Source: Deltaproteobacteria bacterium
GTDB lineage: Bacteria; Desulfobacterota; Desulfobacteria; Desulfobacterales; ETH-SRB1
NCBI GenBank assembly: GCA_030272815.1
Contig: JAJSZT010000001.1
Coordinates: 38,337 to 102,336, forward strand
DNA length: 64,000 nucleotides
Reading direction: 5' to 3'
Of the stretch, positions 1 to 34,121 are shown piece by piece. Numbering within the stretch: the stretch's first letter is position 1; each line of letters starts with the position of its first letter. The position numbers and the translations under genes are program-made. A model generated the notes under the pieces. The model had not been told where the DNA came from. It worked only from the letters and a program-made list of their open reading frames with translations, and made no database searches.

Positions 1-16
1 AGACGACATAAATCCG

Positions 17-2524
17 ATGCTGTTCAGGGCCTATCTTCTACGGGAATCCCAGCTCAGACAGAAGGGGATGAACGTGGAAGCAGATTCAATTCATTGCCAG
101 GCCGCTACTTTTATGCCAACGTACGATAAGCTTTCCGACATGGATCTGATTGCCTTTATGAAAGGCGCTTCCATTGAAGACTTGATAAGCACCTATAACA
201 GGTATATCGGGGAAAATAGCCGCTCCAGTGCCGTAGAGCAGTATCTTGCAGGACAATTCCTTATTCACCGTCAATGGGACCTGCTGGACAACCTTGATGA
301 GAGGGTGCCCCTGAAAAAAGATGCTGCCCCGGTTTTTCGGGCAGCCGAGCTTATGCACAGCGGTGATTGGGAATCTGCTTTGGCCTGCCTGAAGCCTGTA
401 TCGAGAATTTCTCCTTTTGCTCCTGCCCGCATGTTTTGTCTTGCTATGGTATCTTTTTATAATGAAGATGATTCCGGGATGCAGCGAGCGCTTTCCATGA
501 TTCCAGAGGAATTTCCCATTTACAGGGTGGTGAAAAAGCTGAAAAAAAATCCTGCCGACCTTGCCTGCCTGTGGGAAGGTCCGGTAAATACTGAAAAAAG
601 AGTTGCTGAGGTTCTCGAACATCTGAAAAAAAAGCGTTTTAAAGATGCAGCCAGCCAACTCAGAAGTATCGCTGAATTAATTTGTCCTGATGATTTTGAC
701 CGTGCAATTTTCCATCTACTTGAACTGGTCTGGCGCTTTACCTGGGACAACACGATCAACGACTATGAATATTTCCGTTTTATCAAACGGTTGCTTCCTG
801 AAAACCAGTCTGAACTTCTAACTGCGAAAACCGAATATTTTGAGTTTGAGCAACCATTAATTAACACTGGCCAGTATCTTATGCATATAGATGCGGAATT
901 TCCTGACCGGGAACATGCCAGGATTGCCCATGCGCTGATTCTACTGCATGCTGTTGAAAAAATCCACAAGGAGAACTTTTTCGTTCAAAGCTTACGATGG
1001 GACTTTGAACTGTTAGGCCCGGCATTGGGAATCACTGCCGATAAACCTGATGAATGTCTAATTGAGATGACATTAAAGGCAATCAGGCTGGACCCTGAAA
1101 ACCGGCGTAGCTATGAACTGTTGGCAAACCAGCCCCGCTATTCCAGGCAGATAAAAAACCTGGTGGAAGAAGGGTTAATACAGATGCTGGACTATTTTCC
1201 GGATGACCCGTTTCCCTGCCTGGAACTGGCCACCATTTACTACGAAAAGAATGCCTTTCGCAAAGCCGAAAATATCTTAAAAGAGGCTATGAAGCGCGCC
1301 CCCCATGACAGCAGAGTTATTGACCGGCATGTGATTTCGCTGCTGATTTCTGCTGATAACAGCATCAAGAAGAAAAAGCTTCATCTGGCATCCAGAGATA
1401 TTGAAAAAGCCGATGCATTGAGCGGCAAGGCTACTCTGCCGCTGGTGGTTGAAAAACAGATACTGTTTCAGATTACAGAACAGGGGCAATTGTCCCTGTT
1501 CGACGGCAAGGTTGTAGCCGGTGCCGGAAATGTCCTATCTGTCATCGACAGAGCTGTCGCACACTTGTCTCCTTTTGAACAGATAAGTACCATAGCTATG
1601 TTGATTCTGGATGCGACAGGCCGGTTCCCCGAATGGGACAAAAAGATCTTTATCGAATTGGACAGAGCTTTCCGGCATTATGCCAAATCGATAAAGGATT
1701 TGTCTTCCGCACATATCGTTAGTTTGCTCAAGCCGCTAAGTAAGAAGGTGCGGCCGCTTACCCGTTCAAGGCATATTGCAGGTGTCATTTTATATCGTTG
1801 TAAAAATATACTCAAATATGTCGATGACACCGATATTATCCCTGTCCTTGATATCCTTGTTGATGCTGATCTGTTTAAACCGGCTCTGGATGAAATAAAA
1901 CGCAGGATAAAAAATGCCGGAGGGAGAGTAAAGGTATTGCTCGAATTTTACCAGGTTGTGATCCTGCATCTGACAGAAGAGCTGTTCATGGATCTGAAAG
2001 CTTTCCAGAAGGTAAAGGACAAAACTCCGGAATCGGATCTGGAATCGCTTCGGACCTCAGCCAGACGACTTGCAAAACATGCATCAGGGCCGTTAAAATC
2101 AGCCCTTGAAAGTTTTGATTTCACTATGCCTGCACCATCCTTCGGGCCTATGGACGATATGACATCGCCCTATGATTTGTTTGACGATGATTTTCTCATG
2201 GACGACAATGAAGAATATGATGAACAAGATGATCTGAAAGACTTTTTTGAACTTCTGGAAGCGGTGAAACAAAATCCCGGTGTTTTTGATCAGACAGTTG
2301 TTAAAAGTCAGCTTGATACAATTATTAAGGCATTAGAACACTTCATTGTCGCTATGGGTCTTCGGGGAGCACCCGATTTTTTAATCAACGAAATAATAAA
2401 AAATATGCGAAAAGAGAGCCCGGATATGGCAAAGACTTTTTCAACCGTGGCGAGTCTTCTTGACACGGAAGGGATAAATGCACTTTCCAGCGAAGCCCGG
2501 GCATTTCTCTTTGGAAAGGCTTAG
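17..2524 (+). CDS. large alpha-helical/TPR-like protein with acidic C-terminal segment; first gene of the atypical Hsp70 module
   Basis: 835-aa ORF with only short antisense competitors. TPR-like stretch LELATIYYEKNAFRKAENILKEAMKRAP and acidic run DLFDDDFLMDDNEEYDEQDD. Its stop lies 5 nt before the J-like gene. The start is uncertain (ATG 17 or ATG 68). Confidence 0.6.
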   Translation: MLFRAYLLRESQLRQKGMNVEADSIHCQAATFMPTYDKLSDMDLIAFMKGASIEDLISTYNRYIGENSRSSAVEQYLAGQFLIHRQWDLLDNLDERVPLKKDAAPVFRAAELMHSGDWESALACLKPVSRISPFAPARMFCLAMVSFYNEDDSGMQRALSMIPEEFPIYRVVKKLKKNPADLACLWEGPVNTEKRVAEVLEHLKKKRFKDAASQLRSIAELICPDDFDRAIFHLLELVWRFTWDNTINDYEYFRFIKRLLPENQSELLTAKTEYFEFEQPLINTGQYLMHIDAEFPDREHARIAHALILLHAVEKIHKENFFVQSLRWDFELLGPALGITADKPDECLIEMTLKAIRLDPENRRSYELLANQPRYSRQIKNLVEEGLIQMLDYFPDDPFPCLELATIYYEKNAFRKAENILKEAMKRAPHDSRVIDRHVISLLISADNSIKKKKLHLASRDIEKADALSGKATLPLVVEKQILFQITEQGQLSLFDGKVVAGAGNVLSVIDRAVAHLSPFEQISTIAMLILDATGRFPEWDKKIFIELDRAFRHYAKSIKDLSSAHIVSLLKPLSKKVRPLTRSRHIAGVILYRCKNILKYVDDTDIIPVLDILVDADLFKPALDEIKRRIKNAGGRVKVLLEFYQVVILHLTEELFMDLKAFQKVKDKTPESDLESLRTSARRLAKHASGPLKSALESFDFTMPAPSFGPMDDMTSPYDLFDDDFLMDDNEEYDEQDDLKDFFELLEAVKQNPGVFDQTVVKSQLDTIIKALEHFIVAMGLRGAPDFLINEIIKNMRKESPDMAKTFSTVASLLDTEGINALSSEARAFLFGKA

Positions 2525-2529
2525 ATAGT

Positions 2530-2823
2530 ATGTTATCAAGTTATTTTATCATGGGACTCGACTTAGATGCTACTGATGAAGAGATAAGAAAACGTTATCT
2601 GGAGCTTATCAAGCGGTATACGCCGGAAAAAAACCCGAATCGATTCCAGGAAATCACCAGTGCCTATGAACAGATCAAAACCCCCAGAGCCCGCATCCGG
2701 GGGAAATTGTTTGGCACTCTGTCAGTATCAGATGCGGAAGAGGCGCTGCTTTCTCTTGGACGCGCCCGAACACCGGTTCGAAGACGAGCGGGGCTCAAGG
2801 AGCTGCTTGATGAGGCAAGTTAG
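2530..2823 (+). CDS. J-domain-like protein with degenerate HPD motif (TPE)
   Basis: YFIMGLDLDATDEEIRKRYLELIKRYTPEKNPNRFQEITSAYEQI follows the DnaJ J-domain helix I-III pattern. The HPD tripeptide position reads TPE. There is no Zn-finger or C-terminal DnaJ domain (97 aa). Confidence 0.7.
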   Translation: MLSSYFIMGLDLDATDEEIRKRYLELIKRYTPEKNPNRFQEITSAYEQIKTPRARIRGKLFGTLSVSDAEEALLSLGRARTPVRRRAGLKELLDEAS

Positions 2824-2835
2824 GGATGGTTTCCA

Positions 2836-3621
2836 ATGCTGAAATTTTATATAGCTAAATTCGCTAAACGTTTTAAGCGGAGTGTTTTAGATAATGTTCT
2901 TTTGCCGCTTATGAAATGGACTTCGACCCTTTTGTCCGCAAAAATCAAGGCTTATGAGTCTGACACGGCTGAAGTTCCAGCAAGTAAATGGAAGGAAAAA
3001 GTCCTAGAGGATTTTAAGGCATGGATGACGGATCTGCCGGAAGAGATGCCCATTGATCGAAAGGTTGATATGGATTCTTGCGATCTATATACCTTGCTGA
3101 TGGAGTTTACCGCTCTGAGGCAGGAGATAAAATTCCAGAACCGCGAACAGAACAACACACTGAGAATTCAACAATCCTTTATTGATAGCTTGAAGGAAAC
3201 ACTAAAGCTGTTAAAGGACAGGACATTGAAACTCGAAACTCTTGAAGAACGTATACGCTTTGCAAGTGAAAAAAAGGCTGTATTACCGTTTCTGGATATC
3301 AGGGATGGCCTGATTCGGGGACTTAAAGCTGCAAAGGCTGCGGCCGCAACCAGACGATTGTTCGTCCGTCCGCCGCAGGGAATTGAAGGTATAGTTGAAG
3401 GTTATGAAATGGCCCAGCGCCGATTCGACCGGGCTCTGACCTATGTCGGGATAACCCCGGTGACGGCTATAGACCGGCCATTTGATCCCGCTACAATGCG
3501 GGCCGTTGGGCAGGGAAGTGACCTGCAGAAGGAAGCAGGCATAGTGATTGAAGAACAGGTGGGCGGATTTGTCCGACAAGACGAGGTAATCCGGACTGCT
3601 GAAGTAATAGTGAACAAATAG
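2836..3621 (+). CDS. GrpE-like nucleotide exchange factor
   Basis: 261 aa. A long coiled-coil N-terminal half is followed by a GrpE beta-domain-like C-terminus (YVGITPVTAIDRPFDPATMRAVG...GGFVRQDEVIRTAEVIVNK). It lies directly upstream of the Hsp70 gene. Confidence 0.7.
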   Translation: MLKFYIAKFAKRFKRSVLDNVLLPLMKWTSTLLSAKIKAYESDTAEVPASKWKEKVLEDFKAWMTDLPEEMPIDRKVDMDSCDLYTLLMEFTALRQEIKFQNREQNNTLRIQQSFIDSLKETLKLLKDRTLKLETLEERIRFASEKKAVLPFLDIRDGLIRGLKAAKAAAATRRLFVRPPQGIEGIVEGYEMAQRRFDRALTYVGITPVTAIDRPFDPATMRAVGQGSDLQKEAGIVIEEQVGGFVRQDEVIRTAEVIVNK

Positions 3622-3635
3622 CACGGAGACAAAAC

Positions 3636-5387
3636 ATGGAACCAATTATTGGAATAGATCTGGGCACTACAAACTCAGAAGTTGCTTTTATTTTTGACGG
3701 CACAACGGAGATTATTACCGATAACGATAATGGTATCTTACCATCATGCGTCAGCATCGGAGAAAATGGAAATATCATTGTAGGTGCCGAAGCCGGCAAC
3801 CAGGCGTTAATAAACCCTGAAAAAACCGTTCTTTCCGTCAAAAGGTGCATGGGCACAGACCAGAAACTTAAATTGGGTGAATTATCTTTTTCACCACAGG
3901 AGATTTCGGCTTTTATCCTTAAAGAGCTTAAAGAACGTGCCGAGAAAAAAATCAATCGTCCGGTTTCAAAGGCAGTAATCACGGTACCGGCCTATTTTAC
4001 AGATGACCAAAGGCAGGCCACTCGTGAGGCAGGTGAAATTGCCGGACTTGAAGTAGTCCGGATCATTAACGAGCCCACAGCGGCGTCTCTGGCCTATGAA
4101 AGCACCAACCCGGGAACCCAAAGAGTTCTGGTCTATGATCTCGGAGGCGGTACTTTTGATGTTTCCATTGTAAAAATAGAGGCCGGCGTTGTGGAAGTAC
4201 TGTCGAGCACCGGCGATAATCATCTGGGAGGCGACGATTTTGATCTAAAGATAGTCGATCATCTTGTAAAACACATGGAAACTGAGTTTGATTATTCGGT
4301 AAAAGATAAAGCCGCGGTTATGGCAAGACTCAAGCGAGCTGCCGAAGGTGCAAAAATTCAATTGTCATCAGCACCATATACAACCATTGAAGAAGATCAC
4401 ATCGGCAAAAAAGGATTTAAGGATCTTCACCTGTCGCTGGAACTGTCGAGGACGGAGTTCGAGGAAATGATTGAAGAAGATCTTGTCCGCACCATGGAAT
4501 CAGTGAATAAGGCATTAAAGGATGCCGCCATGCTGCCTTCGGCCATCAACAAAATAATCCTGGTGGGCGGATCAACCCGCATTCCCAGGATATCTCAAAT
4601 GCTGGAAGAGAAGATCGGGCATCTGCCCCACAGTGAAATAGATCCGGATCTGTGTGTAGGTATCGGCGCCGGCATGCAGGCGGGAAGAGAAATGGGACTG
4701 GAACGTTCCGGTGTGCTGGTAGATATTACCCCATATACCTTCGGCACTTCCGCCATAGGCGAAGTAGATGGTGAGCCGAGCAAGACGATGTTCGCTCCCC
4801 TGATCCGGCGCAATACCAAGCTTCCGGCAAGAAAAAGCGATGTTTTCTATACCATGGTCGACAATCAGGAGGCTGTGGATGTCAGGATCTATCAGGGAGA
4901 AGCGCCAGATGCTCTGGATAATATCTTGCTCGGAAATTACATGTTTGATCTGACCCGGGCCCCTTCAGGCAGCGAGATCATTTTGCATTTTGACCTGGAT
5001 CTAAATGGAATCTTAAAAATCAAAGCAGTTGAAAAAAAGACCGGCAACAAGATCAACGCAGTGATCGAAAATGCTATTTCCCGGTTTACCGACGAAGAAT
5101 TATCACAAACTCAAGATCGCATCAACGGACTCTGGACTGAAGGAAGGGAATCGGAAACACCTCTGAAAGAAAAGGCGCAAACCGAGGCTGATGTAAAAAA
5201 GCTGCCGCCCGAATATGCCGACATTGTCAGGAGGGCTGAGGGAAAGCTGGCAGAAGCTTTTGAAGACGACCGCGATGAAATGATTAACCTCATAGAAGAT
5301 ATTCGTGATGCTTTAAGTAAAAACCGAATGGAAGATGCAGAAACGTTTAAAAAAGAACTCGACGATATCCTTTTTTATATGGGATAG
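3636..5387 (+). CDS. Hsp70-family chaperone (DnaK/HscC-like, short lid)
   Basis: Hsp70 nucleotide-binding-domain (NBD) signatures IGIDLGTTNSEVA, VITVPAYFTDDQRQATREAG, VYDLGGGTFDVSIV and ILVGGSTRIPRI. The substrate-binding beta domain follows. At 583 aa it is shorter than housekeeping DnaK. Confidence 0.9.
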   Translation: MEPIIGIDLGTTNSEVAFIFDGTTEIITDNDNGILPSCVSIGENGNIIVGAEAGNQALINPEKTVLSVKRCMGTDQKLKLGELSFSPQEISAFILKELKERAEKKINRPVSKAVITVPAYFTDDQRQATREAGEIAGLEVVRIINEPTAASLAYESTNPGTQRVLVYDLGGGTFDVSIVKIEAGVVEVLSSTGDNHLGGDDFDLKIVDHLVKHMETEFDYSVKDKAAVMARLKRAAEGAKIQLSSAPYTTIEEDHIGKKGFKDLHLSLELSRTEFEEMIEEDLVRTMESVNKALKDAAMLPSAINKIILVGGSTRIPRISQMLEEKIGHLPHSEIDPDLCVGIGAGMQAGREMGLERSGVLVDITPYTFGTSAIGEVDGEPSKTMFAPLIRRNTKLPARKSDVFYTMVDNQEAVDVRIYQGEAPDALDNILLGNYMFDLTRAPSGSEIILHFDLDLNGILKIKAVEKKTGNKINAVIENAISRFTDEELSQTQDRINGLWTEGRESETPLKEKAQTEADVKKLPPEYADIVRRAEGKLAEAFEDDRDEMINLIEDIRDALSKNRMEDAETFKKELDDILFYMG

Positions 5388-5402
5388 AACAAGGCTGATA
5401 AT

Positions 5403-5678
5403 ATGGAACGCTGTCCAACCTGCAATGCTAGATATAAAGGCAAGCTCACCTGCCGTCGCTGCAAAACCGACCTGAGACCTTTACTGGATATTGAAGAAAA
5501 ATCCCGGACTCATTATAAAGCAGCGGCAGCAGCATTTGCCTGCAATGATTTCAATCGCATGTTTTTCCATGCCAAACGCAGTTTTTCGCTGATGCAAACG
5601 CCGGAAAACTGCCGCCTGCTTGCCTGTTCGGCTCTGCTGATCCATCGTTTTGACATAGCCCTGGCATTGGCAATCTAA
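5403..5678 (+). CDS. small zinc-ribbon protein (CxxC-x12-CxxC) with helical tail
   Basis: MERCPTCNARYKGKLTCRRCKTD N-terminus. It starts 15 nt after the Hsp70 stop on the same strand. 91 aa. Confidence 0.5.
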   Translation: MERCPTCNARYKGKLTCRRCKTDLRPLLDIEEKSRTHYKAAAAAFACNDFNRMFFHAKRSFSLMQTPENCRLLACSALLIHRFDIALALAI

Positions 5679-5931: not shown

Positions 5932-6673
5932 CTATAACTCCCGAATCGCCCTCATCTCATATTCTTCGATCAATCCTTCATCGGCAAAGCTGAAATAGCG
6001 GTTGTCTCCGATGATGATATGGTCGAAAAAGCTGATGCCGGTGGCCCTGGCCGCCATCATCAGGCTTCTTGTAAATGCTTTATCATCGTTGCTTGGGATT
6101 ACTGAGCCGGAGGGGTGATTGTGGGCGACAATGATCGACGGGGCATTATATTTGATGGCTGTCTGGATAATATCGCGGATATATGGATTCGCCCTGTCAA
6201 CTGTGCCATAGTCGATATCAATCGTATCTGATACGGCATTCCGTCTGTTGAGAAGAAAAAGCACAAACCGCTCTTTTTTTAAGTCTCTCATGAGGGGGCA
6301 TAAGAAAATTCGCAACATCAGATGATTTTTTAATGGAACCTTCCATGGCCTTTTCCTCGCTAAGCATTCTCCTGCCCAGCTCGATAGCTGCTTTAATCTG
6401 GGCGATCTTGGCGTTTTTGAGGCCGGAAATCTCTTTAAACTCAGAAGCATCGATGCCGCTCATGGCGCGGAGCGACTTGTACTTGTGGAGCAATTCTCTG
6501 CCAATATCCACGGCGCTTCTTCCTGGCGTTCCCGTCCTGATTAAAATAGCGAGAAGTTCCGCATTGCTCAGAGCATGTTCTCCGTATTTGAGCAGTTTTT
6601 CTCGCGGCCGGTCATCTTCTGACCATTCACAGATGGGAAGGGGATATTTTTTAGCTTTCTTTTTCATTTGCAA
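5932..6673 (-). pseudogene. radC: radC (UPF0758/JAB-domain) interrupted by a +1 frameshift in a C5 homopolymer
   Basis: ORF 6218..6673 carries the N-terminal half (DDRPREKLLKYGEHALSNAELLAILIRTGTPG). ORF 5932..6450 carries the JAB half (IIVAHNHPSGSVIPSNDD). The frames meet at G5 on the + strand (6294..6298). Removing one base restores NFLMPLMRDLKKERFVLFLLN. Confidence 0.8.
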
Positions 6674-11960: not shown

Positions 11961-14570
11961 TTATTGGGAAACATCTACAAATGAAGAAAGTTCTTTTAGT
12001 ATTTCTTCCAGGTACTTGTTCACCCTCCCGCTGCTAGACAGTACCATATCCAACTGCCTGGTATGCATGACAAGATGACCGAGAACCTTCAATCTCTCTT
12101 TCAAAAAAGGTACTTCCTGTCGCTCCAGCCGGGCAAAAACTGTGTCGCTTTTGACCTGAACCCAAAAATCGAATTTTTCCAGAATCAGCTTAATAAGGTT
12201 GGCTCTTCGCTCCCTGCGGACGTTATCGGCACCGCCGCCGTTAAAATTAAAACAGATATAATTTTCCGCCACCTTCTCACCGAAAAAAGCCTCCACAGTC
12301 GAAAAATGAAAACCGAATCGCGAGCTGAGATGACAAAAATTTCCGGATATCATAAAGTAATTACGGTCAGCATAACGTGAACGCATGCCGGGAACAAGAC
12401 TCCTGTCCATTGTCGCTCCATACATGACGGAGAAAAATCCTTTTGTATCTATCGGCGGCGGGCCTTTCCAGGGCATAGCCGTTATTCCCTCCCACAATGT
12501 CAGCATGGGACCGGAAATTATATCTTCAAGCCTGATCGTATCCCCTTTCATCCCTTCTTTACAACCACCACCCAGATCAACAACCCACCACTGCATAGGA
12601 ACATCTATAACCAACCTCCTGGCTAAATGCTCCGGGAAAGAAGCGTCCTTTTTGAACCCAAAAAGCTCACGCAAGGACATCTCGTGAGCAAAGCGGATAA
12701 TGTCATGTATAGTCCGGCATCCTTCAGGTGTAAAATCTGATGCATCCGGATCGGTAAGATTGAGTGGCGCAATATATTTTAAGACATTTCCCAGGGTGTT
12801 ATGAACAGGACTTCCCTTCATCAAGCTTGTCTTTTCAGCCTCCTTTTCAAGGAGAGATTCCGCCCTGCCGGCATAGACTGCGCAGCCGGTCGCATCGACC
12901 GTAATGAGGTCTCCATTTCGGATATGCTCCGTGGCGGTTGAAGTTCCCAAAAGGGCGGGAACCTTGAATTCACGAGCCACGGCCGCCATATGACCTGTGA
13001 CACCTCCTTTGTCTGTGATGACGGCAACAGCGCTATTTAAGAGCGCTGCCCATTTAGGAAGGGAATTTCTGGCTACAAGAACGGCCCCTGGGGGGAACTG
13101 TAGCATATCTACAGTTGTTTCAACTACAAAGGCATGGCCGCTGGCTGCCCCCGGGCCGGCTGTTACACCACCGGTCAGAATCACCGGAAGGTCAACCTTT
13201 GATTCGGGAATATCCTTAATCCCTGTCGGTTCTTTGCCAAGCACCATCAGCGGCCGGCTTTGTAAAATCGAGACAGAACCGTCCGGTTCAAAAGCCCATT
13301 CAATATCCTGGGGAGCGCCAAAATGTTTTTCCAGACGGAGGGCCAATTCGCCTAACAAAGCAGCTTGTTCGTCGGTTATTGCCGGCTTGTTGGCATGTTC
13401 GTCGGTTATATTCGCAAGGCGTATTCCTTCCAAAGCGCCGGAAACAAGTTGCTGCTTTTTGGCGCTGATTTCGCTTTTCAAAATAATTTTCGGATCTTTT
13501 TTGGAAAGAACAAACAGGTCCTGGGCCATACCTCCATCTACCACCGACTTGCCAAGCCCCCAGGCAGCATTAATTATAATACACTCATGACGTATATTCC
13601 CGGGATCTGCCGAATACATGACGCCACCGGCTCCGGCATCAACCATAGTCATGCAGCCGACACACATAATAATATCTTCATCACGAAATCCCTTGTTTAA
13701 ACGATAGGAAACGGCCGGAACGGAATATTTACTGGCAAGGATCTCCTTGTAGGCAAGGATCAGATTTTCTCTGCTCACGTTGAGTACGGACCGATACTGT
13801 CCGGCAAAAGAGGCATCCCTGGTATCCTCCCCGAGAGCACTGCTGCGCATGGAAACATGAAAGCCATGACCTGCTTTTTCCATTAAGTCAGTGTAGGCGT
13901 TCAGAATGGCCTCTTCAAGTTCCGGGGGGCAGGGTGCAGTAACAATAAGATTCTGGATATCAAAACTGGTTTCATGAAGCCTGGCAATATCTGCTGGTTC
14001 AAGAAATTGAATCCGACGGTTAATCTCATCTTGCAGATCACCATATTCCATGAAGCACTCATGGGCCGCAGTCGTAATGACAAAACCTTCGGGAACAGGG
14101 AGACCAACAGTATTTTTAACCTCGCCCAGATTTGCCATCTTGGCTCCAACATGGTCGGCCATTGTTTTATCGATGCTTTCAAGAGGGATGACTAATTCGC
14201 CCCCGGTCTCTAACTTTTTTTGTTGTAACTCCCTGTCAATTTTTAGAAGAATATCTTCAAGTACCCTTGGAAATTCTTTATATTTATCATTTGCTAATTT
14301 ATTTAAACAACTGATGATCTTATATGTATTGACTGAGATTGCTGTACAGTTCGCCCGAATAAAGGACATGCCGAAAGTGCGGCTTCCCGAAAATGCCTGC
14401 TCCATGTCGGTTATAAGTTCCAACACCTTGTTATTTGTGCTTAGAAGGGTCTTAAAATTCAAATACCTGTTTGTAAAAGCATTCCGAAGGGCTTCAAGCG
14501 CGACCTTCTGTTCAATTTTTTTGGTATCATCCTTCAGTAGTTTTTTGAAAAACCGTTTTAATCCAAACAT
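11961..14570 (-). CDS. PEP-synthase/PPDK-like enzyme (ATP-grasp + swivelling His domain + unassigned C-terminal domain), paralogue 1
   Basis: GAKMANLGE in the PPDK_N-type ATP-grasp and GGVTGHMAAVAREFKVPAL in the phospho-His mobile domain. The C-terminal ~330 aa lack TIM-barrel motifs I can recognise. Paralogous to 19775..22336. Confidence 0.75.
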   Translation of the reverse strand: MFGLKRFFKKLLKDDTKKIEQKVALEALRNAFTNRYLNFKTLLSTNNKVLELITDMEQAFSGSRTFGMSFIRANCTAISVNTYKIISCLNKLANDKYKEFPRVLEDILLKIDRELQQKKLETGGELVIPLESIDKTMADHVGAKMANLGEVKNTVGLPVPEGFVITTAAHECFMEYGDLQDEINRRIQFLEPADIARLHETSFDIQNLIVTAPCPPELEEAILNAYTDLMEKAGHGFHVSMRSSALGEDTRDASFAGQYRSVLNVSRENLILAYKEILASKYSVPAVSYRLNKGFRDEDIIMCVGCMTMVDAGAGGVMYSADPGNIRHECIIINAAWGLGKSVVDGGMAQDLFVLSKKDPKIILKSEISAKKQQLVSGALEGIRLANITDEHANKPAITDEQAALLGELALRLEKHFGAPQDIEWAFEPDGSVSILQSRPLMVLGKEPTGIKDIPESKVDLPVILTGGVTAGPGAASGHAFVVETTVDMLQFPPGAVLVARNSLPKWAALLNSAVAVITDKGGVTGHMAAVAREFKVPALLGTSTATEHIRNGDLITVDATGCAVYAGRAESLLEKEAEKTSLMKGSPVHNTLGNVLKYIAPLNLTDPDASDFTPEGCRTIHDIIRFAHEMSLRELFGFKKDASFPEHLARRLVIDVPMQWWVVDLGGGCKEGMKGDTIRLEDIISGPMLTLWEGITAMPWKGPPPIDTKGFFSVMYGATMDRSLVPGMRSRYADRNYFMISGNFCHLSSRFGFHFSTVEAFFGEKVAENYICFNFNGGGADNVRRERRANLIKLILEKFDFWVQVKSDTVFARLERQEVPFLKERLKVLGHLVMHTRQLDMVLSSSGRVNKYLEEILKELSSFVDVSQ

Positions 14571-19711: not shown

Positions 19712-19774
19712 AAATGCCCAAGTTATTTTTGACCAAGCCCTAAGACAGATAACAAAGGGAAGTTGGGAGATCAA

Positions 19775-22336
19775 GTGCGTAGTTTATTAAACATATTTAA
19801 AAAGATCAGGTTTAAGAAGGCCGACATTCCCAAAGCATCTCCTCCTGATAAAATGTCATTCAAAGAGAGATACGATTGCTTTCAGAATCTCCTCGCCGAT
19901 AACAACTCCATCCTGGAAACACAGGCGGATATGGAGGAAAAGCTCTCAGGGGATTATATCTTTGACATGCATTATGTTGATTCCAAGTGTGATATCCTGG
20001 TAGAAAAGGTTCAGAGTCTCATAGAGAATCTCAATAGCCTCTCAAACGGAGAATATCTTGGCCTCTATGATGCATTTGAAAGAATTAACTCTGGAATCAA
20101 AGATACCCTTATCAAAAATATCGAGATTCCGGTAACGGATTTTACCATACCTTTTGAAGATGTAACAAAAGATATGGTACGCAGTGTAGGTGGCAAGAAT
20201 GCCAATTTAGGGGAAATCAAAAACAGGCTTAATCTCCCGGTCCCTGAGGGCTTTTGTATAAGCTCTCATGCCTTCAAAAGATTTATGGATTATAATGAGT
20301 TGGGAGATAAGATTAATATTTCTTCGGTAGATACAGATAGTCTGGTAGAGCTCACCAGGGTAAGCAAGGAGGTGCAAAACCTGGTTCTGAATGCCGGCGT
20401 CCCCCCTGATTTAGAAAAAAGCATATTAGATGCCGCCTTGGAACTAAAGAGAAAGGCAGGTCACAGGGCCGGCGGATTCTATGTATCCGTCAGGAGCAGC
20501 GCCATCCATGAGGATGCCCAATTTACCTTTGCGGGGCAGTACAAGACTGCTCTTAACGTTACGCCGGAGGATGTAGTCTCAGCATATGTTGAGATTGTCG
20601 CCAGCCTGTTTACCTCAAGGGCCATATTCTATTGTAAAAGTAAAGGCTTCCATGTAGAAGATATGGTTATGGCCGTTGGGGTGGTTGAAATGATTGATGC
20701 CAAGGCAAGCGGGGTTGTGTACTCGCGTGATCCCACGGATGAAGGCAAGCGGGGGATCATAATCAATGGGGTTTGGGGCTTGGGGAAATACGTTGTTGAT
20801 GGTATAGTAAAACCGCATACTTATGTAGTCTCAAGGGATATTCCCATGCCCATTTTGGAAAAAAACCAACCTGTGCAGCCGTTTATGCTCATATGCGGCC
20901 TTGAAGGGGGCGCAATAGATGTCAGGGTGCCGGATTATATAAGACGAATGCCGTGTCTGACCGATGAACAAGTAACCACCCTTGCCAGACATGCCCTGGT
21001 ACTTGAGAAACACTATGGGAAGCCACAGGATATAGAATGGGCGCTTGATTTGAATGATAACCTTCTGATTTTGCAGGCAAGACCACTTCGGATTGTAGCG
21101 GAAAAACAGAGCAGGCCTGTTCCCAGATTTTTACCGGGCCATAAGATTTTGATCAATAAGGGGCAAATTGCCTGCAAGGGTGTTGGCGCCGGAAAAGTAC
21201 ATTTTGTCACCAATGATGAAGAATTAAAGAGCTTCCCGGAAGGGGCTGTTCTCGTAGCCAGACACACCTCTCCGAGGTTTGTGACCGCCATGAATAAGGC
21301 CGGCGCTATTATTGCAGATGTAGGAAGCCCTATAGGCCATATGGCATCAGTTGCCAGAGAGTATGGTGTGCCCACCATTCTTAATACCGAGATAGCCATG
21401 AAGACCTTGAAAGCTGGCCAGGAAATCACCGTTGATGCGATTAATGGAAACATTTATGAGGGGCGTATAGAGCAACTTATTGAGGCAGGAAAAAGAGATA
21501 ACACCTTTAAGGATACCGCTGTTTTTGAGGTGTTAAGAGGTGTTTTGCAGAGCATAGTCCCTCTGAACCTTATCTATCCTGAGGATGAGAAATTTAGTCC
21601 ACAATATTGTGAAACCTTTCATGACATAACCCGGTTTGCCCATGAAATGGCGATGAATGAGATGTTCAAGCTTGGTGAAGGTGCACATCAAAGGAAGGGC
21701 GGGGCAGTGAAACTGGTGGTCAAGCTTCCTCTTGATATACGTGTGATAGACCTGGGTGGTGGTGTGGAAAACGGTTCAGACAAGAAGATTACAGTCGATA
21801 ATATTGCCTGCATCCCCATGAAGGCTCTCCTGAAAGGGATGATGGCCATAGAATGGCCGGGCCCCCCACCTGTAAATGTAAAAGGCCTGCTCAGTGTAAT
21901 TGCCAGTACCGCTATGCAGCCCAACTCCGAGAAGTCATTATCTGAATCCAGCTTTGCTGTAGTATCCAGGGAATACATGAACTTCAGTATCAGGCTCGGT
22001 TATCATCTGCAGACCCTCGAGGCGTATGCAGGTGAGCGCATCAATGATAACTATATCCGTTTCTTGTTTAAAGGTGGCGGGGCATCCCATGACAGACGTG
22101 CCAGAAGGACCCGGCTCATAAAGGAGATTTTAGAAAAAATAGACTTTCATGTTGAAAGGACCGGCGATGTCCTGGATGGCAGGGTGACCAAGTATGACAG
22201 GACTAGTATTGAGAAAAAACTGGGTGTAATGGCCAAGTTGACCGCATTCACCAAGCAACTGGATATGACTCTGTTTAATGATGCTGTTGTAGACTGGTAT
22301 GTCAGGGAATTCATCAAGAACCATTATGTCGAGTAA
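19775..22336 (+). CDS. PEP-synthase/PPDK-like enzyme, paralogue 2
   Basis: GGKNANLGE, GSPIGHMASVAREYGVPTI and the shared C-terminal block DNYIRFLFKGGGASHDRRARRTRLIKEILEKIDF. The ORF opens at TTG 19763. GTG 19775 is preferred (GGGAG 5 nt upstream, and the N-terminus aligns with paralogue 1). Confidence 0.75.
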   Translation: MRSLLNIFKKIRFKKADIPKASPPDKMSFKERYDCFQNLLADNNSILETQADMEEKLSGDYIFDMHYVDSKCDILVEKVQSLIENLNSLSNGEYLGLYDAFERINSGIKDTLIKNIEIPVTDFTIPFEDVTKDMVRSVGGKNANLGEIKNRLNLPVPEGFCISSHAFKRFMDYNELGDKINISSVDTDSLVELTRVSKEVQNLVLNAGVPPDLEKSILDAALELKRKAGHRAGGFYVSVRSSAIHEDAQFTFAGQYKTALNVTPEDVVSAYVEIVASLFTSRAIFYCKSKGFHVEDMVMAVGVVEMIDAKASGVVYSRDPTDEGKRGIIINGVWGLGKYVVDGIVKPHTYVVSRDIPMPILEKNQPVQPFMLICGLEGGAIDVRVPDYIRRMPCLTDEQVTTLARHALVLEKHYGKPQDIEWALDLNDNLLILQARPLRIVAEKQSRPVPRFLPGHKILINKGQIACKGVGAGKVHFVTNDEELKSFPEGAVLVARHTSPRFVTAMNKAGAIIADVGSPIGHMASVAREYGVPTILNTEIAMKTLKAGQEITVDAINGNIYEGRIEQLIEAGKRDNTFKDTAVFEVLRGVLQSIVPLNLIYPEDEKFSPQYCETFHDITRFAHEMAMNEMFKLGEGAHQRKGGAVKLVVKLPLDIRVIDLGGGVENGSDKKITVDNIACIPMKALLKGMMAIEWPGPPPVNVKGLLSVIASTAMQPNSEKSLSESSFAVVSREYMNFSIRLGYHLQTLEAYAGERINDNYIRFLFKGGGASHDRRARRTRLIKEILEKIDFHVERTGDVLDGRVTKYDRTSIEKKLGVMAKLTAFTKQLDMTLFNDAVVDWYVREFIKNHYVE

Positions 22337-23192: not shown

Positions 23193-23263
23193 CATAATAA
23201 AAAAGCTCAGATTTTGAGCGTTTACAAGAGCTTGAAGAAACAGTAATATAATGGAGCGGCCGA

Positions 23264-24223
23264 TTGGAAAAATTCTACTTTTCCAGATTTACGTTTTCCG
23301 TCAGATGCAAAACAACCATCTTTCTTCCATCTTACGCTGGTTCCACTCTCCGCGGCGGATTCGGCCATGCATTTCGCCGCATCATCTGTGCCTTCAAAGG
23401 CAAGGAATGCACAGATTGCCTTTTGCGGGGCCAATGTGTATATGCCTACGTCTTTGAAACACCCATTCCGGCTGATGCTCAAATAATGCGAAAATATACC
23501 GCAGCTCCTCATCCTTTTATCCTTGAACCCTTTACAAACAGCCGGAAATCCTGTCAAGAAGGAGAAGATTTCTCATTCGGCCTCACCCTGATCGGCAGGG
23601 CAACAGACTATCTACCCTATTTTATCTATGCCTTTGAAGAGCTTGGCCGTATCGGAATCGGCAAAGGCAGGGGAAAATATGAGTTGAGGGAAGTAGCTGA
23701 AGAAGGCGGCAAAGGTAACTCTCTCCAGAAAAAAAGAGTCATTTACAGTGGGGATACAAAACTCCTGACTCAAACCAATCCTCCGATACGATGGTCTGAC
23801 ATTGTTATAAACCATCCTTCGCCTCCCTCTGCAATCAGTGTCTCTTTTATCACCCCCACAAGGATCAAGTACAAAAACAGCCTCACCAAAGATCTCGAAT
23901 TTCACGTATTTTTCAGAAGCCTCCAGCGCCGCATATCGCTCCTTTCATACTTTCACTGCAACCACAGGATAGATGACACCGGATTCAAAGATCTTATTCA
24001 GCGAGCCAGGGATATTAAAATCATCAAGAGGTCGCTCTACTGGCACGACTGGGAGCGGTATTCCAACCGCCAGGAGACCCGGATGAAAATGGGGGGATTT
24101 ATGGGCGAGATTACATATGAAGGAGAGTTAAAGAAGTTCTGGCCTTATATCAAGCTGGGAGAATATGTGCATGTGGGAAAGGGGAGTGGATTTGGGTTGG
24201 GGAGGTACAGGATAGAGGAGTGA
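23264..24223 (+). CDS. cas6: Cas6-family pre-crRNA endoribonuclease (RAMP)
   Basis: STLRGGFGHAFRR near the N-terminus and a C-terminal glycine-rich loop HVGKGSGFGLGRY typical of Cas6. It lies between array 1 and the type III effector genes. Confidence 0.8.
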   Translation: MEKFYFSRFTFSVRCKTTIFLPSYAGSTLRGGFGHAFRRIICAFKGKECTDCLLRGQCVYAYVFETPIPADAQIMRKYTAAPHPFILEPFTNSRKSCQEGEDFSFGLTLIGRATDYLPYFIYAFEELGRIGIGKGRGKYELREVAEEGGKGNSLQKKRVIYSGDTKLLTQTNPPIRWSDIVINHPSPPSAISVSFITPTRIKYKNSLTKDLEFHVFFRSLQRRISLLSYFHCNHRIDDTGFKDLIQRARDIKIIKRSLYWHDWERYSNRQETRMKMGGFMGEITYEGELKKFWPYIKLGEYVHVGKGSGFGLGRYRIEE

Positions 24224-25806
24224 CTATGAATTACAGAAAACCGAAACGGATTTTTGAAGATTCCGGGACAGTTGATCCCAGAATGTCATACCATGTTGAG
24301 TTAAAGAATGTGGTTAATACAAGAAAGCAGGATATTAAAACTATGGTTGATCTGGGAAGGTACTTTTCGATATTTGCTCCCAGACAGAGCGGCAAGACTA
24401 CGTTTTTTGAAGGTTTCTGCCGCAAGCTGGAAAAAGACCCTGCCTACGCGGCCATCCTTCTTAGTTTCCAGAGATACAAGAACCTCGATATACAAAGATT
24501 TTATCAATTAGTTCAAAGAGATTTTTATAGCCAACTAACCGACAGGCTCGAAGCCGTGAATTGTCCAAAGCTGGATGCCATAAGAGCGTATCTAAATACC
24601 CATAATTTAACAGATCATATCTCGTTCAGTGAACTCTTCGAAGAATTAAACCGGAAAATAGAATTCAAGAAAATCGTTATCCTTATAGATGAATTTGACG
24701 GCATACCAATTAATGAACTGGAGAATTTCCTTACTACCTTAAGAGATCTGTATCAGAAATACAAGAAACGCACCAGTAAGGCTTTATATTCTGTCGGTCT
24801 GGTCGGTATTCGTAACATCACAAAATTGATTGTGGGCGGTGTTTCCCCCTTTAATATCGCTGATCAGGTAAAACTTCCACCTTTTACTCTAAAGAACGTC
24901 CAAGACCTTTATAACCAGTATACAGAGGAAACCAACCAGCCCTTTACCGAAGATGCAGTAAAAAAGGTATTTAATGAAACAGCCGGCCAACCCTGGCTGG
25001 TGAACCGGCTTGGGACGATTCTGACGGTTGACATAAAACCGGAAACCACGGATCCAATCACCGCAGAAGATGTGGAAAAGGGAATAATGCATCTCCTTAA
25101 AGAAAGAAACAGCCACTTCGATAATCTTTTTGAAAAAGCAAAATTGTACAAAGAGACCTTTGTACAAATCACATTTAATGGGGTTGACTATAGTCCCGAT
25201 AATGAAGATCAATCATGGCTGGAACAATATGGTCTAATCAAGGAGAAAAATAATAATGCTGTTGTGGCCAACGCAATATACAAAAGACGATTCTTAAAGG
25301 CTTTTTTTCAAGAATCCGGGGCAATCGCAGATACTTCACTTAAGGCCTATTTTACTTCCGATGGTTTTTTAAACATGAAAGCTGTTTTATCTGATTTTGA
25401 GGAATACATCATGCAGATAGGTGTAAATGCCTTTTATGCAAGCCAAAAGCCATACGAAAAGACAGGACAATTCCTGCTCACTGCCTGGCTGTATCAGTTT
25501 GTGGAACAGGGAAAAGGGGAGCTCAGTTTTGAGGTTTCAACCGGATTAGGTAGAATCGATATTCTGCTGACCTATCAAGGCAGAAAATACATTGTAGAGA
25601 CCAAAATAAATCGCTCAAGCTTTGAAAGAACTGCGCAAAAGGCGATTGATCAGCTTTGCGGCAAGTATCTTTTAACCGAGCGTGCAAATGAAGGATACGT
25701 AGTGATTTTTGATCCTAAAACAACAGTGGGTGAATTATGCACGCCGCAAGAACGGCTGGTGCAAGGGAAAAAGATATTGATCTTTAATATCGGTATAGGA
25801 AGGTAG
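24220..25806 (+). CDS. AAA-ATPase-like protein with C-terminal PD-(D/E)XK nuclease-like domain
   Basis: Walker A FAPRQSGKTTF, Walker B IVILIDEFD, and a C-terminal GRIDILLTYQGRKYIVETKI (D...ExK). The start (GTG 24220 or ATG 24226) overlaps or abuts the cas6 stop. Confidence 0.7.
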   Translation: MTMNYRKPKRIFEDSGTVDPRMSYHVELKNVVNTRKQDIKTMVDLGRYFSIFAPRQSGKTTFFEGFCRKLEKDPAYAAILLSFQRYKNLDIQRFYQLVQRDFYSQLTDRLEAVNCPKLDAIRAYLNTHNLTDHISFSELFEELNRKIEFKKIVILIDEFDGIPINELENFLTTLRDLYQKYKKRTSKALYSVGLVGIRNITKLIVGGVSPFNIADQVKLPPFTLKNVQDLYNQYTEETNQPFTEDAVKKVFNETAGQPWLVNRLGTILTVDIKPETTDPITAEDVEKGIMHLLKERNSHFDNLFEKAKLYKETFVQITFNGVDYSPDNEDQSWLEQYGLIKEKNNNAVVANAIYKRRFLKAFFQESGAIADTSLKAYFTSDGFLNMKAVLSDFEEYIMQIGVNAFYASQKPYEKTGQFLLTAWLYQFVEQGKGELSFEVSTGLGRIDILLTYQGRKYIVETKINRSSFERTAQKAIDQLCGKYLLTERANEGYVVIFDPKTTVGELCTPQERLVQGKKILIFNIGIGR

Positions 25807-26172
25807 GTGTATTTTATTGGGGAGATCCTTTCCTCTCCTTTCCTCTTGATCTCATTGTGCGGAGGTCTGCGGATGTTGACCGCAGATTTAGATTGGGGGA
25901 TTTTTTTATAAAGGAGATTGTGTAGGAAGGCAAGATACTGTATGAAAAAACTGCCTGATGATTTGGAATGGTCATAATTGACCGGATGCCGGTATTATTT
26001 CGTTCGGTTTTTTTCACCACAAAGAACACGAAGATAAAATCATTTATATTTTGGCTGTTTTTGATTACCACGCAGCACATTGTATTTTATATAGCTTAGT
26101 AGTTATAACCTACGACCGTAATACCTTTAACTTTTGAGAAGTTGCCTCAATATAGTTACAAAAGAGGTGGAT

Positions 26173-28560: not shown

Positions 28561-29023
28561 GCTTTTAAAACAATGGAACCTTAACACGGAAAAGGATATC
28601 AAGGCAAAAATATTCGAGGACTATGCCGAAGGCGACAAACTCACACATATCCTTGACGGCGAAAAGCTTGTCGCATGCAGCTATGCACTGGGCCGGATAC
28701 TTGCGAGCTATAATGTTGGACTAAAGACAGCTCAGTTGAGACGGTTTTATGGATCATTATTGAACATAAAAGCCTCTGCAAATCGTATCAGGGCAGAGTC
28801 TGGGACTGATAACACATTTAAATCTAAGATTATTCCTCAAATACTAATGTTAAAACCATTACTCGCGAATGCAAAGGCAAGACATCGACGGGCAATAACC
28901 CCTTTTTTTGAGGTTATGAATCCGTTGTTCGATGTTGTTAAGGATGGAGATGATTACGATCGGTTTTGCGATTTTGTCGAAGCGATCGTGGCTTATCATA
29001 AGTACTGTGGCGGCAAAGACTAA
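28535..29023 (+). CDS. csm2: Csm2/Cas11-like small subunit
   Basis: 162-aa helical protein between cas10 and csm3. AGGAGG lies 8 nt upstream, and the gene overlaps the cas10 end by 26 nt. Assignment is mainly positional. Confidence 0.65.
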   Translation: MNPEPMEDKLLKQWNLNTEKDIKAKIFEDYAEGDKLTHILDGEKLVACSYALGRILASYNVGLKTAQLRRFYGSLLNIKASANRIRAESGTDNTFKSKIIPQILMLKPLLANAKARHRRAITPFFEVMNPLFDVVKDGDDYDRFCDFVEAIVAYHKYCGGKD

Positions 29024-29044
29024 ATTGTAGAGGAGATTTTCATC

Positions 29045-29956
29045 ATGGGTCAAAACGGACAAAGAGTTTTCTTGGGAAAGGTGTTCTTTAGAGGTAAAAT
29101 TATTCTCAAAACAGGCATGCATATAGGAGGTTCTCAGGAATCAATGCAGATAGGCGGCGTTGACTCTCCAATTATCAGGGACTCAGGAAACAATCTTCCT
29201 TATATTCCTGGAAGCTCCTTAAAAGGGAAACTAAGGAGCACTCTTGAAAAATTCGGAAAAAGGATCAAAGAAGGAAAAGAAGAGAAGTTATCATCCAACA
29301 GGAGCATAGGAACATTCAGACAAAAGGTTTTTATACACTGCTGTGAAGACATTCAGCTTGCCCTTAACTGTGAGGTCTGCCGTATATTTGGTGCAACTGG
29401 AGATGATCGGGAGTTTCAAAAAGGCAAAAAAGATCGGAGAGGCGATAAAGCAGGTAACTTTCCTGCATTATTAATGGTTAGGGATTCCCTTCTTGATGAT
29501 GCCTTTATGCATCCATCCCGCCTTCTTACAGAGGTAAAAACAGAAACAGGGGTGGACAGGTCAACCATGGCGGCAAATCCGAGACAGGTAGAAAGGCTTT
29601 TGCCTGATACAGCCTTTATTTTTGAGATGGTCTATTCCGTGGAAAATATTACTTTGGCTGGAAAAGCTAAGACAAATTTTCCTGAAGCCAATCTCAAGAC
29701 CGATCTGGACAATATCCTGACATGTATGGAGATAATTGAAAGTGAGGGAATAGGTGGGCATACATCAAGGGGATACGGTAAGGTGAGTTTTGTGTTCACC
29801 GAATTTTCAGGAAGATCTCTTGACTACTTTAAGGGTAAAACAGAAAAGGAGAAAGAGAAATCTGATGGCGGCTTTTCGATTCAGGAAGCAAGGGAAAAGA
29901 TAGATGAGATTGTAAAATTGCTACAAAAGGAACCAGAAAATGCTGTTTCTGATTAA
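29045..29956 (+). CDS. csm3: Csm3/Cas7 RAMP backbone subunit
   Basis: LKTGMHIGGSQESMQIGGVDSPIIRDSGNNLPYIPGSSLKGKLRS, the Csm3 N-terminal signature including the Asp of the RNase site. Also CEVCRIFG and GGHTSRGYGKV. Confidence 0.9.
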   Translation: MGQNGQRVFLGKVFFRGKIILKTGMHIGGSQESMQIGGVDSPIIRDSGNNLPYIPGSSLKGKLRSTLEKFGKRIKEGKEEKLSSNRSIGTFRQKVFIHCCEDIQLALNCEVCRIFGATGDDREFQKGKKDRRGDKAGNFPALLMVRDSLLDDAFMHPSRLLTEVKTETGVDRSTMAANPRQVERLLPDTAFIFEMVYSVENITLAGKAKTNFPEANLKTDLDNILTCMEIIESEGIGGHTSRGYGKVSFVFTEFSGRSLDYFKGKTEKEKEKSDGGFSIQEAREKIDEIVKLLQKEPENAVSD

Positions 29957-32930: not shown

Positions 32931-33114
32931 CAAAATCAAAATTAGTGAACTGATGCTGAAACGGAGATGGAAAGATTGGTTATTTTTTTTAAATTGCAAT
33001 GGGATTAGCAAATAAGCTTGAATATCATATGCTCCTCATTCGTGATCTCTATATGTTGAACAGTGCATTATCCTGTTATTCCTGTTTATCCTGTCAAAAA
33101 CCAAAATAGAAAAA

Positions 33115-34116: not shown

Positions 34117-34121
34117 CCTGC

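Follow-up and report, generated by a model that had tools for sequence, protein, structure and literature searches.

Organization of the locus

A stretch of 64,000 nucleotides (nt) from a Deltaproteobacteria bacterium (Desulfobacterota, Desulfobacterales, ETH-SRB1; contig JAJSZT010000001.1, positions 38,337 to 102,336), denoted below as the window, hosts at its start a chaperone module made of five genes. These encode a large tetratricopeptide repeat (TPR) protein, a J-like protein missing the His-Pro-Asp (HPD) triad, a GrpE-like protein, an Hsp70 and a small zinc-ribbon protein. The five open reading frames (ORFs) lie on the + strand at 1-5678 and are separated by gaps of 5, 12, 14 and 15 nt, which confirms the tight, co-directional packing described in an earlier note on this DNA. 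The genes are:

1..2524 (ORF 17-2524), + strand: large TPR solenoid protein, gene cut at the 5' end by the window; Pfam TPR_19
2530..2823, + strand: J-like protein of 97 amino acids (aa), J-domain at residues 1-61 plus a C-terminal extension of ~35 aa; Pfam DnaJ
2836..3621, + strand: 261-aa GrpE-like nucleotide exchange factor with an N-terminal extension of ~100 aa; Pfam GrpE
3636..5387, + strand: 583-aa Hsp70, probably of the HscC type; Pfam HSP70
5403..5678, + strand: 91-aa zinc-ribbon protein, four cysteines at nt 5412-5462, C-terminal half helical and TPR-like

The families in the list come from the profile searches that the earlier note had recommended; for the last ORF Pfam returned only weak zinc-ribbon matches. 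The frame of the first gene is open from nt 2, and near-identical contigs (L001/L072) show the full protein, 898 aa in length. The product had been described as an 835-aa TPR protein. The TPR assignment holds; the length does not, since the start of the window cuts the gene. No description of the five-gene module was found in the literature.

Conservation of the module

One genome per species was scanned, and 62 loci were obtained from the genomes of other species. All five genes are present in the same order and strand in 46/62 loci, and 13 more are cut by contig ends. In the HSG2 locus, 8 kb of DNA carrying his genes are inserted between the TPR gene and an intact J-GrpE-Hsp70-zinc-ribbon block located downstream. 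Only fragments of the TPR gene were found in L057 and L069. Every sufficiently long locus with a full TPR gene has the same gene order. Among cultured species, the module occurs in Desulfonema magnum, D. limicola, Desulfocicer vacuolatum, Desulfobacter vibrioformis and D. latus. More than 120 relatives of the TPR protein were detected, all in Desulfobacterota, and a word-indexed search with the 97-aa J-like protein returned 23 close relatives only.

Leaving close relatives aside, sequence identity with the proteins of the window is 27-42% for the TPR protein, 42-62% for the J-like protein, 38-57% for GrpE, 58-72% for Hsp70 and 37-62% for the zinc-ribbon protein, and all five genes are under purifying selection. 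The maintenance of the five-gene order at 27-72% protein identity is far beyond chance. Flanking DNA differs completely from genome to genome, and may feature toxin-antitoxin genes, a CODH/ACS operon, an asparaginyl-tRNA synthetase gene or his genes. As the unit is kept while its flanks change, the five genes are inherited as an autonomous unit. The five-gene neighbourhood, whose conservation in related genomes the earlier note had proposed to test, is one conserved unit throughout Desulfobacterales.

Variants were noted in a few genomes. The TPR gene is frameshifted in L045 (7947-16762), where toxin-antitoxin-like genes are inserted between the TPR and J genes and between the Hsp70 and zinc-ribbon genes; the five genes are still in order. 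They are in order also in L017 (1211-8882), where the module is interrupted by a ~1-kb insertion. In the Desulfobacteraceae bacterium UBA4064, the TPR-family gene is found on three contigs (L052, L053, L065), two of which carry full modules; these are either paralogous copies in one genome or the result of a mixed bin.

Signals directing the expression of the module were not apparent. Among 53 upstream regions, there were no matches to CIRCE or sigma-54 sites and one match to sigma-32 sites, and k-mer enrichment upstream of the modules highlighted A/T runs only. Sequences resembling sigma-70 promoters are close to chance (18 found, 12.3 ± 3.7 expected), and terminator-like sites are fewer than expected (3 found, 7.9 ± 3.2 expected).

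Hsp70 and GrpE

The fourth gene encodes an Hsp70 (Pfam HSP70, 2.8e-142, 475 bits). The protein falls short of both NCBIfam DnaK equivalogs, scoring 510 bits with NF001413 (cut-off 648) and 498 bits with TIGR02350 (cut-off 822), and NCBI labels its orthologues 'Hsp70 family protein'. Identity is 39% to E. coli DnaK and 35% to E. coli HscC (EcHscC); human Hsp70 is 48% identical to E. coli DnaK, according to a review. The intact signatures of the nucleotide-binding domain (NBD) reported earlier were found again, as DnaK catalytic and allosteric landmarks K70, P143, D148, E171, T199, D326 and the linker VL[LV]D are all invariant in the family.

Compared with DnaK, both the window Hsp70 and EcHscC lack residues 76-101 and 4 aa at the D211 loop, have extra residues in loop L1,2 of the β-subdomain of the substrate-binding domain (SBDβ) and are without a long disordered tail. 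These indels, along with a length of ~550-580 aa and a short acidic/aliphatic C-terminus, are listed as HscC traits in a review. The L1,2 insertion is 8 aa long (EVDGEPSK, nt 4761-4784), and is found in all 50 orthologues and in nearly all members of the HscC-like clade; in EcHscC this loop is longer by 4 residues, and canonical DnaKs have no insertion. The protein ends with the motif DDILFYMG (nt 5361-5384), which is at the extreme C-terminus in ~47/50 orthologues and in most clade members. When 1.84 billion representative proteins were searched exhaustively, the nearest relatives proved to be Hsp70s that are 40-54% identical over the full length, and nearly all of them end in [DE][ILM]L[FY][FY][ILVM][EG]. 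The 'short lid' of the earlier note is correct insofar as the lid is slightly shorter than that of DnaK, but it is not the main cause of the 55-aa difference in length from E. coli DnaK. This is mostly accounted for by the 76-101 deletion in the NBD and by the missing disordered C-terminal tail, and is partly offset by the 8-aa SBDβ insertion.

In neighbour-joining (NJ) trees, canonical DnaKs form a clade in 199/200 bootstrap replicates, and the window family is outside it. A split separating canonical DnaK plus HscA from EcHscC, the window family, its relatives and a cyanobacterial group was recovered in 150/200 replicates. HscA is a separate branch of the Hsp70 tree, and one member of the HscC-like clade is from Planctomycetota. 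By indels and tree position, the window Hsp70 is filed with moderate support as an HscC-type protein, and not as a canonical DnaK. The likeness to E. coli HscC and its partners DjlB and DjlC, previously proposed as an analogy, is closer than that: the Hsp70 has indels of the HscC type and falls with HscC in the tree, and the J-like protein shares with DjlB/DjlC the Asp-to-Glu change and the short link discussed below.

That the set is not a housekeeping one, as the earlier note maintained, is supported by both curated cut-offs and phylogeny. A full-length DnaJ had been reported as missing, and the E. coli DnaJ used as query indeed finds no counterpart in the window or in the module loci. With the Hsp70 as query, all matches were orthologues, and none was a canonical DnaK from the same genomes. 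The genome paper of a Desulfobacteraceae (Desulfotignum) lists dnaK, dnaJ and grpE 'and an Hsp70 protein', and DnaK is described in a review as near-universal.

The GrpE-like protein matches Pfam GrpE (2e-18, 67 bits) at residues 112-261, spanning profile positions 27-165, which correspond to the dimerisation helix, the four-helix bundle and the β-domain. It is under all the NCBIfam GrpE equivalog cut-offs, and is hence divergent. Each complete locus includes a gene for a GrpE homologue. The loop corresponding to DnaK residues 286-295 is present at full length in the window Hsp70 and keeps G-x-K, a sequence that by itself does not decide whether GrpE is used.

The J-like protein

The 97-aa protein exceeds the Pfam DnaJ cut-off (3.4e-10, 40.3 bits; cut-off 27.8). 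Its AlphaFold2 model features helices I-IV, with a predicted local distance difference test score (pLDDT) of ~90, and a poorly ordered extension of ~35 residues. In Foldseek comparisons with the PDB the top 49 matches (probability 1.00) are all J-domain-containing entries, and the root-mean-square deviation from isolated J-domains is 1.4-2.4 Å over 57-67 columns. The relation to J-domains surmised earlier is therefore well founded. The C-terminal extension includes a conserved RRRxGLxEL motif (nt 2779-2808). The NCBIfam ActJ model gave 18.8 bits only, far under its cut-off of 150.

The HPD triad is replaced by TPE at nt 2620-2628. The earlier reading of this substitution is correct, since TPE aligns exactly on the HPD of DNAJA1, DnaJ and other J-domains. 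Orthologues (n=55) have TPE (35), SPE (12) or PPE (8), and none has HPD. The triad is always [T/S/P]-P-E, and its presence in 55/55 orthologues marks it as a fixed trait of the family, and not as the product of decay. The link between helices II and III is short and ungapped, as in DjlB/DjlC (tPEkDPerF versus hPEtDPqgF); DnaJ, CbpA and DjlA require insertions of 5-13 residues at this site. Scores obtained with the hidden Markov model of the family are 29.0 bits for DjlB and 32.8 bits for DnaJ, and do not discriminate between the two types. The small protein thus has a true J fold, probably of the DjlB/DjlC subtype, but is devoid of HPD, and is for this reason called J-like.

About 1% of J-domains read HPE, among which DjlB and DjlC, the partners of HscC, and DjlC stimulates HscC (review). 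The change of Asp to Glu has therefore a functional precedent. The loss of His has none.

In the DnaK-DnaJ complex, as reviewed, H33 of the triad is bonded to the backbone carbonyl of L391 in the linker, P34 is packed against P419, D35 forms bonds with R167 and Q378, and basic residues of helices II and III meet E206, D211, E217 and D477. The equivalents of R167 (R142 in the window Hsp70), Q378, L391 and P419 are invariant in the window family. Other positions have changed. E206 and T417 correspond to K180 and K395, respectively; the former position is K or R, and the latter K, in 49/50 sequences, and both replacements are confined to the window family and its nearest relatives. On the J side, several of the basic positions through which helices II and III bind DnaK carry other residues (L for K26, Q for K48, T for K51). 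From these residues, the J-Hsp70 interface appears to be remodelled rather than abandoned. The acid of the triad and its Arg partner are both kept in the window family, and both lost in cyanobacterial homologues, which have PAH as triad and Q at the R167 position. This joint retention or loss is the best evidence found here that Pro-Glu contacts Hsp70. Covariation between columns of the J-like and Hsp70 alignments was also monitored as mutual information in 50 pairs, but phylogeny dominates and no interface signal emerged.

The TPR and zinc-ribbon proteins

The large protein matches Pfam TPR_19 (6e-7, 30.1 bits; cut-off 25), as do 14/14 members tested. Its AlphaFold2 model (pLDDT 83.6) is an all-helical solenoid of ~760 residues followed by a disordered acidic linker (residues 768-800 of 898, nt ~2150-2260) and a small helical C-terminal domain. 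The acidic region was taken in the earlier note for a tail; it is an internal linker instead, and ~95 aa of helical domain lie beyond it. The most conserved part of the solenoid is a TPR core at nt 1202-1333; one pair of repeats (residues ~452-497) is nearly invariant. Structures retrieved by Foldseek are long TPR platforms, such as Ski3, Ctr9, TTC21B, Naa15, OGT/SPY and Tom70 (E 1e-7 to 1e-4, low TM-scores). No similarity of the family to E. coli DjlC and YbeU was detected by hhalign. All the members of the TPR family start with a polybasic tract, M[AG]KKKKKK. HscC prefers positively charged peptides (review). In the light of this preference, the polybasic N-terminus of the TPR protein and the basic tail of the J-like protein are candidate ligands of the SBD. 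The TPR protein is at least as likely to be a scaffold or adaptor as a client.

The small protein is encoded by the last gene of the module in all instances. The paired CxxC motifs already noticed in the 91-aa product are part of the pattern CPxC-x9-10-C[HR]RC, which is invariant in 50/50 orthologues.

A diverged module in Cyanobacteria and natural fusions

The scan of metagenomes recovered additional Desulfobacterales loci, many canonical grpE-dnaK-dnaJ operons, in which DnaJ is 375-400 aa long and has HPD, and a diverged five-gene layout with genes in the same order. The latter was found in Cyanobacteria (L088, L089, L093, L094, L095, L096) and in L086, and one of its Hsp70s is annotated in the cyanobacterium Goleter apudmare. 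In this sister module the large protein, which has a basic N-terminus, is 780-843 aa long, the J-like protein 97-107, the Hsp70 585-595 and the zinc-ribbon protein 127-140; GrpE completes the set. In the Goleter-type locus L096, Pfam detects TPR in the large protein, DnaJ (31 bits), GrpE, HSP70, and both TPR_11 and TPR_2 in the small zinc-ribbon protein. For L086, Pfam supports only DnaJ and GrpE, and the large and small proteins have no match. The J-like triad is PAH, and is deleted in L086. Besides having Gln at the R167 position, cyanobacterial Hsp70s end in FLYY(A/V/I)(S/T/N)T(N/D). The architecture common to the two modules could reflect either deep divergence or the recruitment of analogous scaffolds.

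Two fusions are of relevance. In the high-GC metagenome contig L152, the gene for an HscC-like Hsp70 (3-1883, C-terminus ELTDVLFDLG) adjoins one encoding a 930-aa J-domain-TPR fusion (2804-5596), with PPE as triad. In L069, from a metagenome-assembled genome of Desulfobacterales, a 208-aa ORF (2078-2704) consists of the nearly invariant TPR core fused in frame to the zinc-ribbon/TPR protein. This ORF adjoins a gene for an AAA_16 ATPase, has no chaperone genes within 8 kb, and represents either a natural fusion of minimal size or what a deletion has left behind. Together, the two fusions tie the J-like, TPR and zinc-ribbon parts to one another.

Other features of the window

Past the module, a single surplus G in a run of Gs at ~6296-6300 breaks radC (5932-6673, - strand) into two overlapping ORFs. 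RadC is an intact ORF of 244 aa in the 99%-identical contig L072, and the split stems either from an error in assembly or from a frameshift of very recent origin. Two paralogous proteins of ~860 aa with PPDK_N and PEP-utilizers mobile domains are encoded at 11961-14570 (- strand) and 19763-22336 (+ strand). Genes for a sigma-54 activator, two CBS-domain proteins and a Na/sulfate-type symporter are found between them, and the whole may form a cluster for regulated phosphotransfer or transport. Further on (~23,260-34,120, + strand) lies a type III CRISPR-Cas locus encoding Cas6, an AAA_35 ATPase, Cas10/Csm1, RAMP proteins and Cas1.

Function of the module

The module is best read as a new variant of HscC-type specialised Hsp70 systems, one that carries its own GrpE and lacks HPD. 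It is common among Desulfobacterales, and a diverged counterpart occurs in cyanobacteria. The chances are somewhat better than even that it functions as a self-contained specialised machine, additional to the housekeeping DnaK and built around a TPR scaffold or client. In such a machine, the J-like protein would dock at the canonical site formed by NBD, linker and SBDβ, with Pro-Glu contacting the equivalents of P419, R167 and Q378. The hydrogen bond between His and the linker would have been given up and the electrostatics rebuilt (E206 to K/R, T417 to K), and the triggering of the ATPase would be weakened, or dependent on a partner. The C-terminal extension of the J-like protein and the hydrophobic-acidic C-terminus of Hsp70 would tie both to the TPR solenoid and to the zinc-ribbon/TPR protein. 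For the J-like tail there is a precedent in AtcJ, whose C-terminal extension binds an operon partner. The solenoid and the zinc-ribbon/TPR protein may be a platform presenting a specific client, or the client itself; the polybasic N-terminus of the former is a plausible Hsp70-binding or surface-targeting element. The cycle would be reset by the dedicated GrpE.

Several observations weigh against this proposal. Identity of the Hsp70 to EcHscC is no higher than to E. coli DnaK, and support for the HscC grouping is moderate (75%) and comes from NJ only. The presence of GrpE appears as a departure from the type member, as E. coli HscC works without it (review). In alignments with DnaK, the LFY motif falls where the final helix of the lid ends, and may be a structural element and not a docking peptide. 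Homology between the large TPR proteins of Desulfobacterales and cyanobacteria is not established, the probability assigned by hhalign being 13%. At the His position, T, S and P alternate, which suggests that no particular side chain is selected there. Finally, H33 substitutions abolish stimulation in every system tested (review), and the J-like protein may accordingly not stimulate Hsp70 at all.

The last point leads to a different view of the J-like protein, according to which it is a structural or inhibitory subunit comparable to Pam16/Tim16, or a pure adaptor, and the ATPase is triggered by the client or by the housekeeping DnaJ in trans. This has perhaps one chance in a few of being right. 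It would explain why His is missing in all 55 orthologues and its substitutes are interchangeable, why the sister module has no remnant of HPD, and why several basic residues binding DnaK are replaced. It does not explain, however, the invariance of Pro-Glu and of the R167, Q378 and P419 equivalents. Only in the cyanobacterial version have both sides gone, a pattern that speaks for a contact maintained by selection. Moreover, HPE J-domains are functional with HscC, and the module encodes no second J-protein. It is rather unlikely, on the other hand, that the large TPR protein is a single obligate client, similar to IscU, and that the operon exists to fold, assemble or switch it. The TPR gene heads the operon in every case and is inherited along with the other genes, the polybasic N-terminus fits the preference of HscC for positive charges, and HscA-HscB acting on the folded scaffold IscU provide a precedent (review). 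Yet the protein is confidently predicted to be a stable solenoid of 760 residues, of the type found in assembly platforms such as Ski3, Ctr9, TTC21B, Naa15 and Tom70, the J-TPR and TPR-zinc-ribbon fusions in related loci would rather suggest a co-chaperone-like assembly, and a client with no other function would not account for conservation across phyla.

That the five genes are a divergent housekeeping DnaK-DnaJ-GrpE system is very improbable, even if GrpE adjoins Hsp70, the catalytic residues are all intact and no other Hsp70 was found in the 64-kb window or in any retrieved locus. DnaK equivalog cut-offs are failed, and identity to E. coli DnaK is lower than that of human Hsp70. The protein is outside the 199/200 clade, whose members sit in grpE-dnaK-dnaJ operons along with the HPD DnaJ of 375-400 aa. 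Neither the window nor the module loci encode a class A or B DnaJ, upstream regions provided one sigma-32 match and no CIRCE, and the Desulfobacteraceae genome mentioned above lists an extra Hsp70 next to dnaK, dnaJ and grpE. Least credible of all is that the module is cargo of a defence or mobile island, as an anti-phage or toxin-antitoxin-associated system based on Hsp70. PIN/HicAB/PemK toxin-antitoxin genes and a type ISP restriction enzyme gene flank the operon in the source contig and in D. magnum, and the CRISPR-Cas locus is 18 kb away. In other genomes, by contrast, flanks are housekeeping or metabolic (CODH/ACS, asparaginyl-tRNA synthetase, his genes), no integrase or repeat boundaries were found, and the PADLOC scan of the five proteins gave only a generic Hsp70 match to PDC-M61B (6e-5, 19.9 bits).

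A specialised HscC-type machine would be of interest, because bacterial Hsp70 paralogues beyond DnaK and HscA are almost unstudied. The module is a compact and full list of parts (Hsp70, nucleotide exchange factor, J-like protein, TPR scaffold, zinc-ribbon/TPR accessory). Its carriers belong to an order of sulfate reducers that is ecologically dominant, and genetically tractable cyanobacteria possess a diverged copy. The module is also a natural experiment on the HPD rule, since His is gone, Pro-Glu and its Hsp70 contacts are kept, and both sides are lost in the sister clade; it therefore lends itself to telling apart which part of the J-Hsp70 contact serves docking and which triggering. Gene content further suggests that some HscC-type Hsp70s use GrpE, unlike the E. 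coli paradigm. As a more speculative and rather doubtful extension, the modules of Desulfobacterota and Cyanobacteria, to which Hsp70s of Planctomycetota are related, might represent a widespread bacterial system dispensing with HPD triggering, in which dedicated TPR proteins receive the conserved hydrophobic C-terminal peptide of Hsp70 and the J-like tail. The polybasic N-terminus of the scaffold might in addition anchor such a system to a surface of negative charge, be it a membrane, nucleic acid or the ribosome. If so, it would be a prokaryotic counterpart of the eukaryotic network of Hsp70 tails and TPR co-chaperones.

Comparison with known systems

The eukaryotic systems in which the EEVD tail of Hsp70 is bound by TPR proteins (Hop, CHIP, Tom70) resemble the module in that a conserved C-terminal Hsp70 peptide occurs beside TPR proteins. 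It is a resemblance only, as the motif of the module, [DE][IL]LFY[ILM][GE], is hydrophobic, and no carboxylate-clamp residues were identified. Pam16/Tim16 is a J fold without HPD inside a dedicated Hsp70 motor. It is paired, however, with the HPD-bearing Pam18, is eukaryotic and organellar, and has no sequence kinship with the J-like protein, in whose module no second J-protein is found. AtcJ, of the AtcJ-AtcABC system of Shewanella oneidensis, is a J-protein of ~95 aa with a short conserved C-terminal extension that binds a partner encoded by the same operon. Unlike the J-like protein, AtcJ relies on a functional J-domain with HPD, and the Hsp70 that it recruits is the housekeeping DnaK; no dedicated Hsp70 or GrpE is involved.

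Myxococcus xanthus SglK is co-transcribed with its own GrpE-like gene, GrpS. This feature sustains the likeness to SglK/GrpS pointed out in the earlier note, which is otherwise weak, because SglK passes as a DnaK type, whereas the window Hsp70 fails the cut-off of the PRK00290 model and lies in the HscC-like clade. SglK is a second, non-heat-shock DnaK of the PRK00290 type, and complements an E. coli dnaK mutant. In HscA-HscB-IscU, a specialised Hsp70 is similarly served by one dedicated small J-protein, and the pair acts on a folded scaffold, IscU, encoded by the same operon (review). HscB retains HPD, HscA does not need GrpE, and neither TPR nor zinc-ribbon partners are known in this system.

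Among known systems, that of E. coli HscC and its J-proteins comes closest. HscC has in common with the window Hsp70 the 76-101 and D211-loop deletions, the L1,2 insertion, the lack of a long tail and a hydrophobic-acidic C-terminus, but has no GrpE partner, while a GrpE gene is always part of the module operon. DjlB and DjlC share the Glu of the triad and the short helix II-III link with the J-like domain, and differ in being ~480 aa long and in having kept His (HPE), which is T, S or P in the ~100-aa proteins of the module. In the hscC region of E. coli (ybeQRS-ybeTUV-hscC), Sel1 TPR-like proteins are encoded beside djlB, djlC and hscC, in a setting reminiscent of the TPR proteins of the module.

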